Positions 1-4,367 of a stretch of 4,367 nt of DNA are shown here, piece after piece. The position numbers and the translations under genes are program-made. The stretch covers positions 1 through 4,367 of IMG/VR virus record IMGVR_UViG_2711768068_000016. One strand, written 5' to 3'. Origin of the DNA: a virus. Taxonomy: Duplodnaviria; Heunggongvirae; Uroviricota; Caudoviricetes. Each line of letters opens with the position of its first letter. Position 1 is the first letter of the stretch. The notes beneath the pieces were generated by a model that was not told the DNA's origin, made no database searches, and saw nothing but the letters and a program-made list of their open reading frames with translations.

Positions 1-1761
1 TTCGTTACGCCGCTTTTTGTTATCCCACAGCAGACGCATCTTTCCTTTTTCCCACTTCTCCACAAGCTCTTCCGCGACCAGTTGCTGCGCCTCTGTCTGC
101 GAAAAAATCTCCGGATCATCAGGAAAACGGATGGCATACGACGTGGCTTCATCCGCAGGAGTGGGATCGGCTTTCATACGGGCATAGAGAATTTCTTTTG
201 CGGTGTCCGTCCCCACTTCACACAGATACACGCCCCGCTGATTGCGGGTTTTCGGCATGGTGATCACCGGCTTGCCATAGACAGATGCGCCTTTTACCGG
301 CAGCACCCGGAAAACACCGTGTTTTTTTGACCTCTGATAGACAATTTCACCATCGATCCCCCCGGTGTCCCAGCAGACACGGGAAATGGTCATTTCGGTT
401 CCGTCTGCATGGCAGTATTTTTTGTTGATCGCCGCATCCACACGTAACAGCGTCTCTTCCTCATCGGGACGGCCCATAATGATGATTTTATCCACCAGAA
501 AGGCTTCCTCTCCCGGTGCCCATCCCCAGACATACATCTCAAAACGGTTTCGCTGCGAGTCAATGCCCGCCGTCAGATAAACCACCCGGGCAGGCACCGC
601 CGCCGTGTAACGCACCACCTTATCCATCAGTACCTGGTGATCGAGTTTTTCGCCCACGGCCTCTTCCCAGGTCTCGCCCAGCGTGGTGTTCACAAAGGTT
701 TTCAGGCCGTTGGGATCTTTCAGTGCATCCAGCCAGTCATAGACTATCTGTATCCAGGTGGTGAACGGACTGTACGCCGTCCAGATATGGAACGTGATGG
801 AGCGCGGCGGCGGAATTTCATCCCCCCGGGCGCTGAAAAACATCAGGCCGTCACGGGTCCACATACCCGTGTTTTCACAGATCCAGCGCCCGTTACTCTG
901 GTCAAGCTCAGACTGATGGATCACGCAGCCATGATGTTCACAGAGGTAGAAAACGCTTTCGGGGCTGTCCTTCTCCCATTTAAGGCCAAAAGGCGTGGAT
1001 TCATCGCCAAATTTCAGATACTGCGCCTCCTCACAGTGCGGGCAGGGCACATAGAAACGCATGAAATGCGCCGACTCGTTGGCCGCTTTTTCGATCTGGC
1101 AGGTACCTTTGATTTTAGGCGTCGAGCCGCGAATGGATTTTGGCCATACAGAGCCCTCAATACGCTTATCCCCCAGCAGGGTTGGCGAGCCCTCTTTTTC
1201 GACATCCGGCTCGAACGAGGAAAGCTCGTCATAGCAGACCACGTCCACGGATTTTTCACGGTAGTTTTTGGCGGCTGCACCGCCCAGGCACCAGAAACCG
1301 ACGCCCGATGAAAAGCGTTTCAGCGTGAGAGTATTGTCACGATGTTTACGACCCAGCCATGGGGAAAGGTCTTTCAGGCATGGCACGTTCCGAATCGTCG
1401 CCTCCACGTGAGACTTCATAAAATCTTCAGCGGCAGAATCCGTGGGCTGAAAAAGCAGACTGTTTCGGGATTTATGCTCAATAAAATACCCGGCGACTCC
1501 CAGCAACATCTTTGTATAGCCAACACGGGCAGATTTAATCAGATTAACAGTGCGGATCTGATCATTCCCCATACTGTTCATGATGGCGATCTGGAACGGC
1601 AGCGTTTTCCATTCTCCCTCACCATATGAGGATTCTTTCGGCAGATAATAATACTGGTCAGCCCATTCAACTGCCGTCATCGGTACAACCCTGACCAGAG
1701 GCTGCAGCGCAACCGAAACGGCGGCCACCATATTATTCAGTTGTTGCTCTGATATATTCAT
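1..1761 (-). CDS. A: Phage terminase large subunit (lambda gpA-like), N-terminal ~587 codons; C-terminus lies beyond window position 1
   Basis: The minus-strand frame is open from ATG 1761-1759 to the window edge with no stop; the ORF track lists no closed ORF here, consistent with the stop lying outside the window. By-eye translation starts MNISEQQLNNMVAAVSVALQPLVRVVPMTAVEWADQYYYLPKESSYGEGEWKTLPFQIAIMNSMGNDQIRTVNLIKSARVGYTKMLLGV and ends LVEKWEKGKMRLLWDNKKRRNE at position 1. This is colinear with my recollection of lambda gpA (MNISNSQVNRLRHF...TAVEWADANYYLPKESAYQEGRWETLPFQRAIMNAMG...KSARVGYSKMLLGV...KKRRNEALDCF). Walker-A-like KSARVGYT and Walker-B-like VVCYDE motifs are present. Plus-strand ORFs at 82-1629 are antisense shadows of this gene. 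Confidence 0.93.
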   Translation of the reverse strand, partial: MNISEQQLNNMVAAVSVALQPLVRVVPMTAVEWADQYYYLPKESSYGEGEWKTLPFQIAIMNSMGNDQIRTVNLIKSARVGYTKMLLGVAGYFIEHKSRNSLLFQPTDSAAEDFMKSHVEATIRNVPCLKDLSPWLGRKHRDNTLTLKRFSSGVGFWCLGGAAAKNYREKSVDVVCYDELSSFEPDVEKEGSPTLLGDKRIEGSVWPKSIRGSTPKIKGTCQIEKAANESAHFMRFYVPCPHCEEAQYLKFGDESTPFGLKWEKDSPESVFYLCEHHGCVIHQSELDQSNGRWICENTGMWTRDGLMFFSARGDEIPPPRSITFHIWTAYSPFTTWIQIVYDWLDALKDPNGLKTFVNTTLGETWEEAVGEKLDHQVLMDKVVRYTAAVPARVVYLTAGIDSQRNRFEMYVWGWAPGEEAFLVDKIIIMGRPDEEETLLRVDAAINKKYCHADGTEMTISRVCWDTGGIDGEIVYQRSKKHGVFRVLPVKGASVYGKPVITMPKTRNQRGVYLCEVGTDTAKEILYARMKADPTPADEATSYAIRFPDDPEIFSQTEAQQLVAEELVEKWEKGKMRLLWDNKKRRNE

Positions 1762-2239
1762 CCAGCAAATCCGGTAATTTATCCCCTGCCCGCGCACACT
1801 GATTTGCGCCCTTTGCAATAAGGGTTTTCAGATGGTCAATATGACGTGGCGTTAAATCCGGGAACTGTCGCTGCATGGATAACGGAATGGAATCAAGCGT
1901 ACTGGACAATGCCATCGCCAGTTTGCTGAGGGCGAAAACGCAGAAGTCTGAATCGATGAGCTTACCTTCGGTTACCTGATTTTTAAGTTTTTGAGCTACA
2001 GCCTGTTCTTCTGTCAGTTCAGCTCTGGCCCGAAGCAGCCTTTCCTCCAGTTCTCCCCCGTCATCAGGTGTTCTCTGATTGTGTTGTCGCCGCTCGCGAT
2101 CTATCTCCAGTACAGTTTTAACGTCATATAAAACTTCCCTCCCCCGACGTTCAACAGGAGGAACGCCCCATTTATCAAATGCCTGAACAGAGATACCGAT
2201 GGAGGAGGCCATATCACTTTTATTCAATAAAAAGGCCAT
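1733..2239 (-). CDS. nu1: Phage terminase small subunit (lambda Nu1-like DNA-packaging protein)
   Basis: Track ORF 1733-2344 (minus) translates to ...GREVLYD...AVAQKLKNQ...DFCVFALSKLAMALSSTLDSIPLSMQRQFPDLTPRHIDHLKTLIAKG...DLLDEYIRATTE, matching recalled lambda Nu1 (NEVLYD...AQELKN...AFCTFVLSRIAGEIASILDGLPLSVQRRFPELENRHVDFLKRDIIKA...GLLSEYIEQSG). Start placed at ATG 2239-2237 (MAFLLNKSDMASSIG...) because GGAGAGGAG lies immediately upstream and it aligns with the lambda N-terminus MEVNKKQLADIFG. In-frame ATGs at 2257 and 2344 are alternatives, but the 2344 extension would read through the cosB repeats. Stop TAA at 1735-1733. Confidence 0.88.
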   Translation of the reverse strand: MAFLLNKSDMASSIGISVQAFDKWGVPPVERRGREVLYDVKTVLEIDRERRQHNQRTPDDGGELEERLLRARAELTEEQAVAQKLKNQVTEGKLIDSDFCVFALSKLAMALSSTLDSIPLSMQRQFPDLTPRHIDHLKTLIAKGANQCARAGDKLPDLLDEYIRATTE

Positions 2240-2271
2240 CTCCTCTCCATAAGTCATCGATAAAAAGCGAA

Positions 2272-2280
2272 ACAACAACC
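2272..2280 (+). repeat. cosB R-like element copy 1 (ACAACAACC), nearest the Nu1 start
   Basis: Exact 9-mer; extended match AAACAACAACC at 2270-2280, shared with copy 3. Confidence 0.55.
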
Positions 2281-2349
2281 ATGTGTTTTTGCAAAACCAT
2301 TTGATATCATTGATATTTTTCGCATTGACGACATCAAAACACATCGTAA

Positions 2350-2358
2350 GGTTGTTGT
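2350..2358 (-). repeat. cosB R-like element copy 2 (GGTTGTTGT on plus strand, i.e. ACAACAACC inverted)
   Basis: Exact reverse complement of the 9-mer, lying between the two direct copies. Confidence 0.55.
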
Positions 2359-2408
2359 ATTTATTTTATTTTCACCTTACTTATCAATTAGATATACCAA
2401 ACAATTAA

Positions 2409-2417
2409 ACAACAACC
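2409..2417 (+). repeat. cosB R-like element copy 3 (ACAACAACC), nearest cosN
   Basis: Exact 9-mer; extended match AAACAACAACC at 2407-2417. It lies about 40 nt from cosN, comparable to lambda R3. Confidence 0.55.
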
Positions 2418-2455
2418 ACCCCCTCAAAAAATCTCATAAATAGTGAAAACGCGCG

Positions 2456-2467
2456 AGGTCGCCGCCC
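2456..2467. other. cosN core: 12-nt cohesive-end sequence AGGTCGCCGCCC (reverse complement of the lambda left-end overhang GGGCGGCGACCT)
   Basis: Exact 12-mer seen in sequence. The flank toward Nu1 (rev-comp CGCGCGTTTTCACTATTTATGAGATTTTTT) closely resembles the recalled lambda left end (CGCGGGTTTTCGCTATTTATGAAAATTTT). The flank on the other side (2468-2660, cgtaaccggtcggatcgccggaaaggacccg...) closely resembles the recalled lambda right end (CGTAACCTGTCGGATCACCGGAAAGGACCCG...). The site lies at the expected position immediately upstream of Nu1. Confidence 0.85.
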
Positions 2468-2660
2468 CGTAACCGGTCGGATCGCCGGAAAGGACCCGCA
2501 AAATGATAATAATTATCATCTACATGTCACAACGTGCATCTACGCCATCAAACCACGTCAAATAATCAATTATGACGCAGGTATCGTATTAATTGATCTG
2601 CATCAAATTAACGTAAAAGCAACTTCAGATAATACAAATCAGCAACACTGAATATGGGGC
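2468..2660. other. Lambda right-end-like non-coding DNA adjacent to cosN (expected to contain cosQ)
   Basis: By recollection, about 90 percent nucleotide identity to the lambda right-terminal about 200 bp (…GATAATGATTATCATCTACATATCACAACGTGCG…CAAATAATCAATTATGACGCAGGTATCGTATTAATTGATCTGCATCAACTTAACG…). No ORF present. Confidence 0.7.
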
Positions 2661-2666
2661 AACATT

Positions 2667-2891
2667 ATGTCATCAAAGAACAGAACCCGCAGAACAACAA
2701 CCCGCAACATCCGATTTCCAAACCAGATGATTGAACAAATTAACATCGCTCTTGATCTGAAAGGTTCAGGAAATTTTTCAGCGTGGGTTATTGAAGCCTG
2801 CAGAAGAAGATTAATTAATGAAAAATATTCTCAATTTGTACCCAACAAAGACAAACACGACCAGAGCACCTGTTCAGACAGGTTTACTTAA
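2667..2891 (+). CDS. ylcI: Small DUF3950 / YlcI-YnfO family protein (lambda orf-64 homolog), putative ribbon-helix-helix DNA-binding protein
   Basis: 74-aa ORF MSSKNRTRRTTTRNIRFPNQMIEQINIALDLKGSGNFSAWVIEACRRRL... The first ~50 residues are nearly identical to the recalled lambda right-end ORF / E. coli YlcI (MSTKNRTRRTTTRNIRFPNQMIEQINIALEQKGSGNFSAWVIEACRRRL...). The pattern, a short beta-strand followed by two helices, is RHH-like. Stop TAA at 2889-2891. Confidence 0.8.
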   Translation: MSSKNRTRRTTTRNIRFPNQMIEQINIALDLKGSGNFSAWVIEACRRRLINEKYSQFVPNKDKHDQSTCSDRFT

Positions 2892-2908
2892 ACGACTTAT
2901 ATATGACA

Positions 2909-2937
2909 CAAAAAGCGACCACTAAAGTCGCTTTTTC
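2909..2937. terminator. Putative bidirectional Rho-independent terminator between the convergent ylcI-like and PerC-like genes
   Basis: Hairpin AAAAAGCGAC-cactaaa-GTCGCTTTTT: GC core stem GCGAC/GTCGC at 2915-2919 and 2927-2931, A-tract 2910-2914 on one side and T-tract 2932-2936 on the other, so it reads as stem plus U-tract in both directions. It sits 18 nt after the plus-strand gene stop and 36 nt after the minus-strand gene stop. Confidence 0.5.
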
Positions 2938-2972
2938 TTATGGTAACAGGCAATAACGCTCTCAGATATTTT

Positions 2973-3287
2973 TTAGCATTTTTTTGACCGCGCGTTTCCG
3001 GACGTATTCTGTTCTCCTGTCCCTTTATATCGTCGGAATACCCGCCGCTCTTCAAATCCCATTCCCAACTCAGAATGTAGTCTGTTGACCGCTTGTTTTA
3101 TTTCGGTCAGGTTCACCGGTGAAACCGGAGTCCGGCGCGCCTTACGCAAACACTCTGCTCGTTTCTGTGCCGCCACTTTTCTTTTCTGGTCATCACTTAG
3201 CTGTACCATCACTTTTGCCCATCGTTCAGCTGCTCTCCGGTACAGTCCTTTTTTCTCCAGACATTCTGCCAGGTGATCATGTAGCAT
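2973..3287 (-). CDS. PerC-family transcriptional regulator (Pch/YfdN-like prophage moron)
   Basis: 104-aa ORF MLHDHLAECLEKKGLYRRAAERWAKVMVQLSDDQKRKVAAQKRAECLRKARR... carrying the LExKGLYRRAAxRW signature I associate with the PerC family (EPEC PerC, O157 Pch proteins, K-12 YfdN). Good RBS: GGAGG 6 nt upstream of ATG 3287. Stop TAA at 2975-2973. Confidence 0.82.
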   Translation of the reverse strand: MLHDHLAECLEKKGLYRRAAERWAKVMVQLSDDQKRKVAAQKRAECLRKARRTPVSPVNLTEIKQAVNRLHSELGMGFEERRVFRRYKGTGEQNTSGNARSKKC

Positions 3288-3750
3288 AAGTAACCTCCGT
3301 TTATCTACAGACTGCCATCCTGAATTTACCGTCCTTAATAAGACAACAATAAAAAACTAATTATATAAAAACAATAAAAATAATATACAAAAAAACTAAA
3401 CAACAAAGAAAAGCAAATCATATCTGGCATTTTAATTGAAAGAGCAATTACCGAACAAAAGACGCTGACTATATACTCAAAACCAAACAACAATTCTGCC
3501 AATCAGGTATCATGGCAACACACGGAATTACCATGTTTTTGCCTTCTCTGCCCATACAATACGGGCATATACTTCATACTCTATTGTAATATTTCTATCC
3601 ATGCGCCCCACTCCATTTACCTGTAAATAATATTCAAAATATTTATCACAGAAATCGTTTTTGGCCATGAACTGAGCACACTATAAAGTCCGGAACTGAC
3701 TCTTTGTTAAATTACCTTAACGTTACCAGTAACACCTTCATAACAAAACA
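3288..3750 (-). promoter_or_regulatory. AT-rich non-coding island: presumed promoter/long leader of the PerC-like gene and region downstream of the Rz stop
   Basis: About 460 bp with no ORF of 60 codons or more in any frame. Extremely A-rich on the plus strand (e.g. 3340-3420 aataaaaaactaattatataaaaacaataaaaataatatacaaaaaaactaaacaacaaagaaaag). GC content is far below the flanking genes. No specific -35/-10 could be assigned with confidence. Confidence 0.4.
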
Positions 3751-4224
3751 TCACGGTATACACTGGGTACGGATATATTCCTGTGCTCCTTCCAGTTGCT
3801 TCTGCATTGCCATCAGCCGTTCTCTGAGGATGAAATAATCCCGTTCAGCGGCTTCTGCCAGTCGGGGACCGGTTGCATTATCCACGCCGGAGGTGATGGG
3901 GGCTTTACGCAAGGAGCCTGGACAGTTGGCGTTGATGCGCAGGCGCTTACGACCAGCGGCAACATCAGCACGCAGAGTTTCATTTTCAGCTCTCGCATCG
4001 GCTAATTCCCTCGAGTATCTGGCATCAAGTGCAGCAACATCACGCTGGCGCTGCTGCATATCAGTAATGGTTGCATTTGCCAGCTCCAGCTCACTGACTT
4101 TTTTATCGCGCTGCTCTTTGTAGGTTATGGCGTTATCGCGGTAATGATTCAGCCCCAGACTAAGCGCACCACAGACCACCAGCAGAATAACGGTAAACGC
4201 GGAAAGCATTCGGTTTATGCTCAC
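3751..4224 (-). CDS. rz: Rz i-spanin (inner-membrane spanin subunit), lambda Rz-like
   Basis: 157-aa ORF MSINRMLSAFTVILLVVCGALSLGLNHYRDNAITYKEQRDK...DVAALDARYSRELADARAENETLRADVAAGRKRL...SGVDNATGPRLAEAAERDYFILRERLMAMQKQLEGAQEYIRTQC, colinear with recalled lambda Rz (…AVNHYRDNAITYKAQRDKN…DVAALDAKYTKELADAKAENDALRDDVAAGRRRL…ASGVDNAASPRLADTAERDYFTLRERLITMQKQLEGTQKYINEQCR). N-terminal TM helix present. GTG start at 4224 overlaps the stop of the upstream ORF (GTGA), as ATGA does in lambda R/Rz. Confidence 0.93.
   Translation of the reverse strand: MSINRMLSAFTVILLVVCGALSLGLNHYRDNAITYKEQRDKKVSELELANATITDMQQRQRDVAALDARYSRELADARAENETLRADVAAGRKRLRINANCPGSLRKAPITSGVDNATGPRLAEAAERDYFILRERLMAMQKQLEGAQEYIRTQCIP
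3813..3998 (-). CDS. rz1: Rz1 o-spanin (outer-membrane lipoprotein spanin subunit), embedded out of frame within Rz
   Basis: 61-aa ORF MRELKMKLCVLMLPLVVSACASTPTVQAPCVKPPSPPAWIMQPVPDWQKPLNGIISSSENG: signal peptide with lipobox (VVSAC), proline-rich mature region. Matches recalled lambda Rz1 (MLKLKMMLCVMMLPLVVVGCTSK…CVKPPPPPAWIMQPPPDWQTPLNGIISPSERG). Entirely nested in the Rz gene in a different frame. Confidence 0.9.
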   Translation of the reverse strand: MRELKMKLCVLMLPLVVSACASTPTVQAPCVKPPSPPAWIMQPVPDWQKPLNGIISSSENG

Positions 4225-4367
4225 CCCACCAGCCCTGCCGAAGTCAACGCCATCCAGGCCATGGAAAGAAAAAGAGCAACCAGCATTAGTGAAAATGAAA
4301 TGCCGACAAGTACACAGAGGCTCTTCACCAGCGTTATGAGTTTATCTGATATCATTAGCCACCCCAT
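4221..4367 (-). CDS. Partial ORF encoding a hydrophobic, probably membrane-spanning C-terminus (48 codons visible; start at or beyond the window edge); unclassified lysis-cassette member
   Basis: Minus-strand frame from the window edge: MGWLMISDKLITLVKSLCVLVGISFSLMLVALFLSMAWMALTSAGLVG, ending at TGA 4223-4221, which overlaps the Rz GTG start. The ATG at 4367-4365 is in frame but the ORF may extend beyond the window. The sequence is not lambda R-like (lambda R ends ...GGTVREIDV). Confidence 0.45.
   Translation of the reverse strand: MGWLMISDKLITLVKSLCVLVGISFSLMLVALFLSMAWMALTSAGLVG

Follow-up and report, generated by a model that had tools for sequence, protein, structure and literature searches.

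The short YlcI/YnfO-family gene beside cos in the DNA analysed here (the window, 4,367 nt in its entirety) very probably spans a standing lambdoid module boundary, in which two conserved arms enclose interchangeable cassettes, each made up of the gene's own C-terminal tail plus cargo. The junction inside the gene is a fixed, family-wide feature of lambdoid phages and is neither specific to the window nor recent. It is established that lambdoid phages have sharp mosaic boundaries and moron slots in the stretch from the lysis genes to cos, and that EHEC prophages carry pch genes; the placement of the boundary within a gene is the only mildly unusual feature. The locus is a clean and well-delimited case of accessory-gene swapping in lambda-like prophages.

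The window covers the lysis-to-packaging joint of a lambda-like prophage, reversed relative to the lambda map. Its features are as follows.

1 to about 1760, minus strand: large terminase.
1733-2344, minus strand: Nu1-type small terminase.
2427-2809: cos-proximal conserved block (cosN, cosQ side, intergenic DNA and YlcI core), the left homology arm of the cargo slot.
2456-2467, minus strand: cosN cohesive end, AGGTCGCCGCCC on the plus strand, read from the sequence and aligned with the lambda cos region.
2667-2891, plus strand: YlcI/YnfO-family (DUF3950) ORF of 74 aa from the ORF list (PF13132; phrog_949), divergent from Nu1 and convergent with PerC.
2667-2813, plus strand: conserved core of the YlcI/YnfO ORF, codons 1-49, with 46 of 49 residues the same as in lambda.
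2801-2826: junction zone, codons 46-54, holding the pairwise change-points between tail types.
2814-2891, plus strand: variable C-terminal tail, INEKYSQFVPNKDKHDQSTCSDRFT plus stop, inherited with the PerC cassette and predicted to be disordered.
About 2810-3757: cargo cassette ("PerC island") of about 950 bp, comprising YlcI tail, hairpin, PerC, AT-rich spacer and 46-aa ORF.
2910-2936: perfect 10-bp inverted repeat AAAAAGCGAC-N7-GTCGCTTTTT between the convergent ylcI-like and perC genes (repeat search, 100% complementary).
2973-3287, minus strand: PerC-family regulator of 104 aa, the cargo gene (Pfam PF06069, E=5.4e-44).
3528-3668, minus strand: 46-aa ORF of unknown function, phrog_2157 (E=2.3e-37 over its full length).
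3751-4224, minus strand: Rz i-spanin (Pfam Phage_lysis, E=1.3e-46), a conserved block forming the right homology arm.
3813-3998: Rz1, embedded in Rz.

The ATG of the YlcI/YnfO ORF lies 200 nt from cosN, with Nu1 on the opposite strand, and the gap between the convergent ylcI-like and perC genes measures 81 nt (2892-2972). The cosN sequence is the reverse complement of GGGCGGCGACCT, the lambda cohesive-end sequence, and the match of phage DE3 to the window carries a 'cos site' annotation beneath it. A scan of the whole window against Rfam returned zero matches at E<=0.1. A consensus promoter scan of 2350-3760 returned only two sites, both at 2503-2532, and found no sigma-70-like site upstream of the YlcI/YnfO ORF on the plus strand.

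The 74-aa reading frame at 2667-2891, with the tail quoted for it in the earlier note (INEKYSQFVPNKDKHDQSTCSDRFT), was recovered exactly. Its Pfam score for DUF3950 (PF13132, residues 21-49) is 66.6 bits with E=1.8e-18, where the curated gathering cut-off stands at 25 bits; it matches phrog_949 at E=1.7e-31, and RefSeq labels the identical locus 'YlcI/YnfO family protein'. The setting is the one typical of DUF3950, a small ORF at the lambdoid packaging genes, divergent from the small terminase gene, and the same layout of ORF, cos and Nu1 is found in lambda, 434, Qin and O157 prophages. The lambda homologue is likewise as the earlier note had it: in a recent lambda record it has 64 codons, lies about 200 nt from cos, ends in the quoted tail TSEKRAYTSIKSDEE and is identical to the window's protein at the 46 N-terminal residues already given. 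Its label 'orf-64' is mistaken, however, as lambda orf-64 is lambdap73, which lies between Q and S and whose product, MKRGGAYYRFRLVGHF..., is unrelated to the DUF3950 ORF. Lambdap73 and the lambda DUF3950 ORF have a length of 64 codons in common and nothing else. No functional study of YlcI, YnfO or DUF3950 was found in a literature search.

To call the left part of the gene nearly lambda-identical, as had been done, overstates the likeness, for the DNA is about 90% identical and synonymous divergence in the core is considerable. Between the two cores there are 15 synonymous and 4 non-synonymous changes (dS 0.69, dN 0.036, dN/dS about 0.05), and the core is under strong purifying selection. 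The tail, said to bear no resemblance to that of lambda, is indeed mostly different, but residues 50-53 (INEK in the window, TSEK in lambda) are still alike. A reading of the window's tail as a frame-shifted lambda tail was tried and rejected, because the tail DNA itself cannot be aligned with lambda's. The lambda ORF and its K-12 counterpart YlcI (DLP12) agree with the window's gene in the PF13132 domain, in position and orientation about 200 nt from cosN, in divergence from Nu1/nohD, and at about 90% DNA identity from cos to codon 46. They differ in the TSEKRAYTSIKSDEE tail (64 aa in total, against a 25-residue INEK tail in the window), in the downstream cargo, which is ybcW/ybcV/bor and not PerC, and in cosB and Nu1, which left of 2427 are of another type than the window's. 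YnfO of Qin (E. coli K-12) shares the family and the place beside nohA, and its core protein is that of lambda. It differs from the window's gene in a 28-residue tail, whose DNA shows only 0.38 identity past codon 46 in a change-point fit, and in its cargo of ydfO, gnsB, ynfN and cspI.

Nucleotide alignment to lambda and to prophage loci, suggested in the earlier note as a check, confirmed the drop in identity and mapped it inside the gene. Identity to lambda is 85-94% over 2427-2801, 58% over 2802-2813 and thereafter about 42%, which is background; a two-state change-point fit against lambda gives 0.90 on the left, 0.31 on the right and a break at 2801. Taken together, the comparisons of the window with lambda, 434 and Qin fall from about 0.87-0.90 to 0.24-0.38 at 2801-2814. 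The left block 2427-2809 is common to lambda, 434, Qin, DLP12-type and many E. coli prophages at 89-100% identity, and the blastn matches to lambda, 434, Qin and three E. coli prophage alleles (L053, L055 and L057) start at about 2421-2468 and end at 2801-2814.

The three prophage alleles are the most telling. Within the gene, L053 and L055 agree with the window at 98-99% as far as nt 2809 and L057 at 99% as far as 2802; past these points (2809/2810 and 2802/2803, respectively) identity is 26-31% and the sequences cannot be aligned. Between related phages, near-identity thus gives way abruptly to unalignable DNA at the junction. With their window-type cores the three alleles encode proteins of 61 aa (L053), 66 aa (L055) and 60 aa (L057), and L055 has a TonB_C-like ORF downstream of the core where L053 and L057 have small ORFs, none of them related to PerC. 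Pairwise change-points were placed among 11 representative loci with seven tail types (the core copies total 9,462), and 49 of 50 clear right breaks lie 135-160 nt into the gene, counted from the ATG, i.e. within codons 46-54 or window positions 2801-2826. The single exception is the pair lambda and 434, which have a common tail and break past the stop codon. The exact break varies with tail type (2802, 2809, 2812-2814 or 2821-2826). Lambda and Qin have identical core proteins, with two synonymous differences only, and diverge at the same junction. The protein database repeats this picture: the family has a constant core of 49 residues, to which many unrelated tails, 1-40 residues long, are attached, and the more distant Tatumella homologues are tail-less, ending at residue 51.

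A scenario without any recombination, in which a fast-evolving disordered C-terminus diverged in place while selection held the folded core, has several observations on its side. The pattern x-[S/T/N]-[E/D]-[K/R] at residues 50-53 is kept across most tail types, whose first four residues are patterned alike (TSEK, CSEK, INEK, ITEK, STER, STDA). The window's tail shows a marginal likeness to that of Qin YnfO (NEK....NKDKHD versus SEK....NKEKSD, shuffle p about 0.004, uncorrected for 11 comparisons) and to that of L058 (p about 0.003, likewise uncorrected for 11 comparisons); over the whole tail homology test, p ranged from 0.003 to 0.05 before correction for 11 comparisons. L058, whose protein of 74 aa is as long as the window's, is diverged along its whole length (core about 84%), and the low dN/dS of the core goes with an apparently relaxed tail. 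The scenario can by no means accommodate cores that are 98-99% identical, synonymous sites included, and yet carry unalignable tails and downstream genes, with the switch completed within a few nucleotides. Neither does it account for an identical tail behind cores separated by a dS of 0.2, nor for downstream genes that are wholly different (PerC, the TonB_C-like ORF, ydfO/gnsB/cspI or ybcW/ybcV/bor). In-place divergence may apply to old pairs such as INEK versus ITEK or CSEK; for the junction described here it does not, and as a general account it is improbable. As for the pattern at residues 50-53, it would mark where helix 2 ends, or could be left over from an ancestral tail, and judging from these likenesses some tails may be old, diverged relatives of one tail rather than unrelated DNA.

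The combinations of cores and tails argue for exchange. The DLKG core is joined to four different tails (INEK, STER, STDA and TKKA), and the INEK tail is combined with two or more core alleles and with two packaging modules. In one of these, the L052 locus, the INEK tail and PerC are identical to the window's, seven codons of the core are different (dS 0.21), and in place of the lambda-type cos/Nu1 there is an upstream module of HNH endonuclease and HK97-type terminase; the ylcI-PerC unit stands beside such an HNH/HK97-type terminase module in 258 genomes. One core type with four tails and one tail with at least two cores form a pattern that tree-like divergence in place cannot explain. The proposal that a recombination breakpoint lies within the gene, at the left edge of the PerC island, is therefore supported both by the alleles and by their discordant combinations. 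It had also been proposed that conservation of the tail in many homologs would count against a breakpoint. Formally the tail is conserved in just this way, at the 1,869 places described below, but these copies represent one module and not independent homologues, and the test is badly posed.

Traces of exchange are also visible upstream of the junction. Phage 434 has 1 mismatch over 2468-2606 (about 99% identity, closer than lambda upstream) and is about 89% identical from 2607 onward, and the L062 allele has lambda's codon states at codons 3-20 and the window's from codon 33. Both patterns are footprints of homologous crossovers inside the left arm.

On the other side of the cargo, homology returns. 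In comparisons with L053, L055, L057 and 434 it stops at 2809-2814 and resumes at 3758-3876, in the last Rz codons or just past them, and on the Rz side the homology to other prophages resumes at 3758-3773; the last 1-2 Rz residues vary among loci. The variable segment is thus flanked by conserved arms, 2427-2809 and 3758 onward, and the cargo between the arms is unrelated to the window's in L053, L055, L057, Qin and lambda. In 200-nt windows, GC content is 27-39% over 3200-3800, with the minimum of 27% in the spacer, against 48-56% in Rz. The 46-aa ORF is present at 95-100% in all six fetched PerC loci searched by tblastn (L005, L052, L060, L061, L062 and L064), and the same search found it in no fetched locus without PerC.

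Another reading is that the PerC cassette might be a mobile element that inserts site-specifically at the YlcI 3' end through an att-like junction. The cassette is compact and AT-rich, and the breaks of seven tail types cluster within about 25 nt, as an insertion site would have it. Such clustering is, however, expected anyway if selection removes joins that damage the core. The exact break differs among tail types, a repeat search detected no direct or inverted repeats at either edge of the cassette, and the ORF list and the Pfam and phrog searches contained no integrase or transposase within it. Site-specific insertion is extremely improbable on this evidence.

The inverted repeat at 2910-2936, 3' of PerC, is flanked by A5 and T5 runs and folds as RNA at -11.2 kcal/mol on the plus strand (z=-3.1) and at -15.9 kcal/mol on the minus strand (z=-2.9). 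It is a candidate bidirectional intrinsic terminator, although a consensus terminator scan did not call this hairpin.

The tail is poorly ordered in the AF2 model (pLDDT about 50 for residues 51-74), and the INEK tail variants among the alleles compared, S67R, Y54H and S55A, are all non-synonymous. This apparently weak constraint could suggest that the tail is an artefact, either a frameshifted or decayed lambda-type pseudogene or a meaningless chance extension of the ORF. The protein database does hold many frameshifted family variants, mostly resembling error-prone reads of lambda control DNA, and one protein (P0008, tail INENILNLYPTKTNTTRAP) resembles a frameshifted version of the INEK tail. 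Against an artefact, the tail DNA shows no homology to lambda's tail at the nucleotide level, whichever frame is taken, and the 74-codon frame is intact in every full-length allele fetched (the window, L002, L005, L052, L060, L061 and L062). In addition, the segment recurs at 1,869 places with at least 95% identity, and RefSeq annotates an intact CDS and no pseudogene. We give this explanation next to no chance.

The fold of the core would bear on where a join can be tolerated. The AF2 monomer (mean pLDDT 62) is helical over residues 19-31 and 39-55 and extended over residues 1-18, and no strand is assigned in it; the strand of a ribbon-helix-helix (RHH) domain forms only in the dimer. Profile searches against the PDB gave two plausible matches only, the CopG-family entry 9kkd (E=1.1) and the RHH protein CdbA (6sbw, E=1.1), both below significance. 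Also below significance were an hhalign comparison with an Arc alignment (pairwise E=9e-4, probability 23%; the Arc sequence used was checked against PDB entry 1arq) and the match of one DUF3950 member to Pfam RHH_6 (E=0.092). The CopG, CdbA, Arc and RHH_6 matches all fall in one register. With P22 Arc, the N-x-R-[FW]-P motif (N-I-R-F-P in YlcI), a helix, a G-turn and a second helix align in register with the DUF3950 core, although Pfam keeps DUF3950 as a family of unknown function, separate from the Arc/Mnt/CopG repressors. In a Foldseek search of the PDB, the low-confidence AF2 model had no match below E=7. It is a reasoned guess from profile matches and model that the YlcI core is probably an RHH domain.

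We propose the following course of events for the module boundary. Each cassette would first have been joined by non-homologous recombination, replacing the last 15-30 or so YlcI codons. The folded and selected part of the protein would end at about Leu49-Lys53, the end of helix 2 of the probable RHH domain, and the end of YlcI would be replaceable because the remainder is disordered and weakly constrained. Joins that truncated the protein before about Leu49 would have been lost and later ones tolerated, so that each cassette would have fixed its own short read-through tail; we infer that the tail is dispensable. Later movement between prophages would have proceeded by ordinary homologous crossovers within the two conserved arms, and such crossovers would place one tail-plus-cargo unit behind different core alleles and packaging modules.

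In the mosaic model of Hendrix and Casjens, boundaries lie at gene or domain edges, moron or cargo genes occupy slots, and exchange runs via flanking homology. The locus resembles this model in its sharp transitions, in the AT-rich accessory gene with a hairpin between Rz and cos, and in the flanking homology. It departs from the model in the place of the boundary, which cuts a gene a few codons before its 3' end instead of falling between genes, the cassette supplying the C-terminus.

Neither the core nor the cassette is rare. Among 5,426 complete E. coli genomes, 4,171 carry the core segment (2667-2809), at 9,462 places in all, and 673 carry the tail segment (2802-2975), at 1,869 places that all show 95% identity or more; about one fifth of the gene copies in E. 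coli carry the INEK tail. In a spread sample of 30 tail-segment hits, 29 cover both YlcI/YnfO and PerC, and the remaining one is a degraded plasmid copy with an NleH pseudogene in place of the tail. A scan of one genome per species yielded usable loci in Escherichia, Shigella, Rouxiella and Tatumella only, and outside Enterobacterales most matches represent contamination with lambda control DNA.

Practically the window's own sequence is found in E. coli O157:H7 EC4115 (WP_001303940.1 with WP_001302717.1), which is 99.5% identical over 2427-3350 and differs in one residue of the gene, S67R. Its annotated series (terminase small subunit, YlcI/YnfO, PerC regulator, lysis protein) runs in the order Nu1, cos, ylcI, perC, Rz as in the window, and the YlcI/YnfO-PerC loci of O157:H7 and other EHEC/EPEC prophages show no substantive difference from the window. 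Hundreds of RefSeq genomes already contain the sequence and annotate the YlcI/YnfO protein as intact, and the boundary is of a known kind; a literature search found no paper describing this particular one.

RefSeq names the cargo gene 'PerC family transcriptional regulator' in O157:H7 EC4115, EDL933 and others. In O157:H7, pch members of the PerC/Pch family regulate the LEE virulence island. The cargo PerC is probably a Pch-type protein of EHEC prophages. O157:H7 carries three group-1 pch genes, pchA, pchB and pchC, PerC homologues on which full expression of the LEE depends (PMC6265319). The median of three copies of the tail segment per genome is consistent with this trio.

The tail might also have a role of its own, either as a cassette-specific functional adaptor that retunes an RHH DNA-binding core, or with convergent ylcI transcription acting through the hairpin to modulate PerC/Pch. 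The near-constant linkage of tail and PerC, the convergent 81-nt gap and the occurrences of the family in satellites and fusions are compatible with this reading, and if it were true, YlcI-INEK would act in EHEC as a partner of PerC/Pch expression, or as its regulator, specific to this cassette. We regard it as very unlikely.

For annotators the module boundary means that different C-termini of YlcI/YnfO should not be read as separate families or as frameshifts, and a catalogue of what E. coli prophages carry between Rz and cos can be anchored on the YlcI core and Rz. Of the complete E. coli genomes, 77% have the YlcI/YnfO family, for whose function, so far not known, the probable RHH fold offers a starting hypothesis. 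DUF3950 also occurs in phage satellites and as fusions to a DNA-binding segment of the small terminase; in one such protein (P0188) it is fused to a Terminase_2 fragment, inside an integrase-plus-primase element.

On its right, the cargo slot is bounded by the extreme 3' end of Rz (window 3751-3775). Homology between the window and the other loci resumes at 3758-3773, and the Rz C-termini agree up to the final one or two residues (CIP, CIN, CLK or CR in the window, the comparison locus L003 and the E. coli prophages L053, L055 and L057, which carry other cargo). On either side, therefore, the slot is closed by the 3' end of a conserved gene, and the two genes converge. Two small reading frames, one within the PerC cassette and one beyond Rz, have family matches:

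3528-3668, minus strand: 46-aa ORF (MAKNDFCDKYFEYYLQVNGVGRMDRNITIEYEVYARIVWAEKAKTW), full-length match to phrog_2157 (E=2e-37)
4221-4367, minus strand: 48-aa hydrophobic ORF, match to phrog_4906 (E=4e-28)

The 46-aa ORF was found at 95-100% identity in all PerC loci fetched, and the RefSeq records inspected show no annotated gene there. The 48-aa ORF overlaps the start of Rz and has its own start exactly at the window end; in E. coli O157:H7 EC4115 it is annotated, between an antirepressor-like gene and Rz, as a hypothetical protein some 48 aa long. A further copy of the cassette resides on a plasmid:

L064 1568-2392: degraded PerC cassette copy on plasmid pOkiPb01711_1 (65.7 kb)

Here the YlcI gene has been replaced, up to about window position 2896, by an NleH pseudogene and IS fragments, and later rearrangement can thus part PerC from the tail.

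On the packaging side, our comparison reveals another mosaic boundary, roughly 30 nt left of cosN (window about 1680-2427). No DNA similarity to lambda was detectable in the cosB/Nu1 segment of the window, and similarity picks up again in terminase A at ~70% identity. The Nu1 type of the window is common to the prophage L057 and the PerC locus L060 (90-93%). This pattern is consistent with cosB and Nu1 having been swapped together as a specificity pair. Only one sigma-70-like consensus match was found in the region 2350-3760:

2503-2532, minus strand: GTGACA-16-TATCAT, 10/12 consensus positions

It lies on the cosQ side, pointing at cos and Nu1, in the stretch of the cos block with the highest conservation, where identity to phage 434 is 100%; the match may well have arisen by chance.

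In two distant members of the DUF3950 family (proteins P0188 and P0212) the core is fused to a fragment matching Terminase_2, i.e. a small terminase. One of these fusions sits between a primase and an integrase (locus L065, 3001-3390), an arrangement characteristic of phage satellites, and YlcI/YnfO proteins have been reported in capsid-forming PICIs of Enterobacter (PMC13612085). These occurrences give a possible hint that the family is linked to DNA packaging.

Lambda itself has two mutually unrelated 64-codon ORFs, whose names are readily mixed up. They occupy L063 903-1097 and L001 1741-1935 (both lambda loci):

canonical orf-64 (lambdap73), between Q and S
cos-adjacent DUF3950 ORF, labelled merely "hypothetical protein" in a recent lambda record

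The right end of lambda is also matched by contigs, many of them ~3.5 kb long, in species-representative genome assemblies of unrelated organisms, including Kitasatospora, Cohnella, Pedobacter, Polaromonas and a Nanosynbacter MAG (among loci L010-L050, e.g. L014, L016, L023, L030 and L038). Identity to lambda was 98.5-100% in all 12 such contigs checked. These matches look like contaminating lambda DNA used as a sequencing control, which probably also accounts for many unusual protein-database entries for "YlcI" with frameshifted tails.
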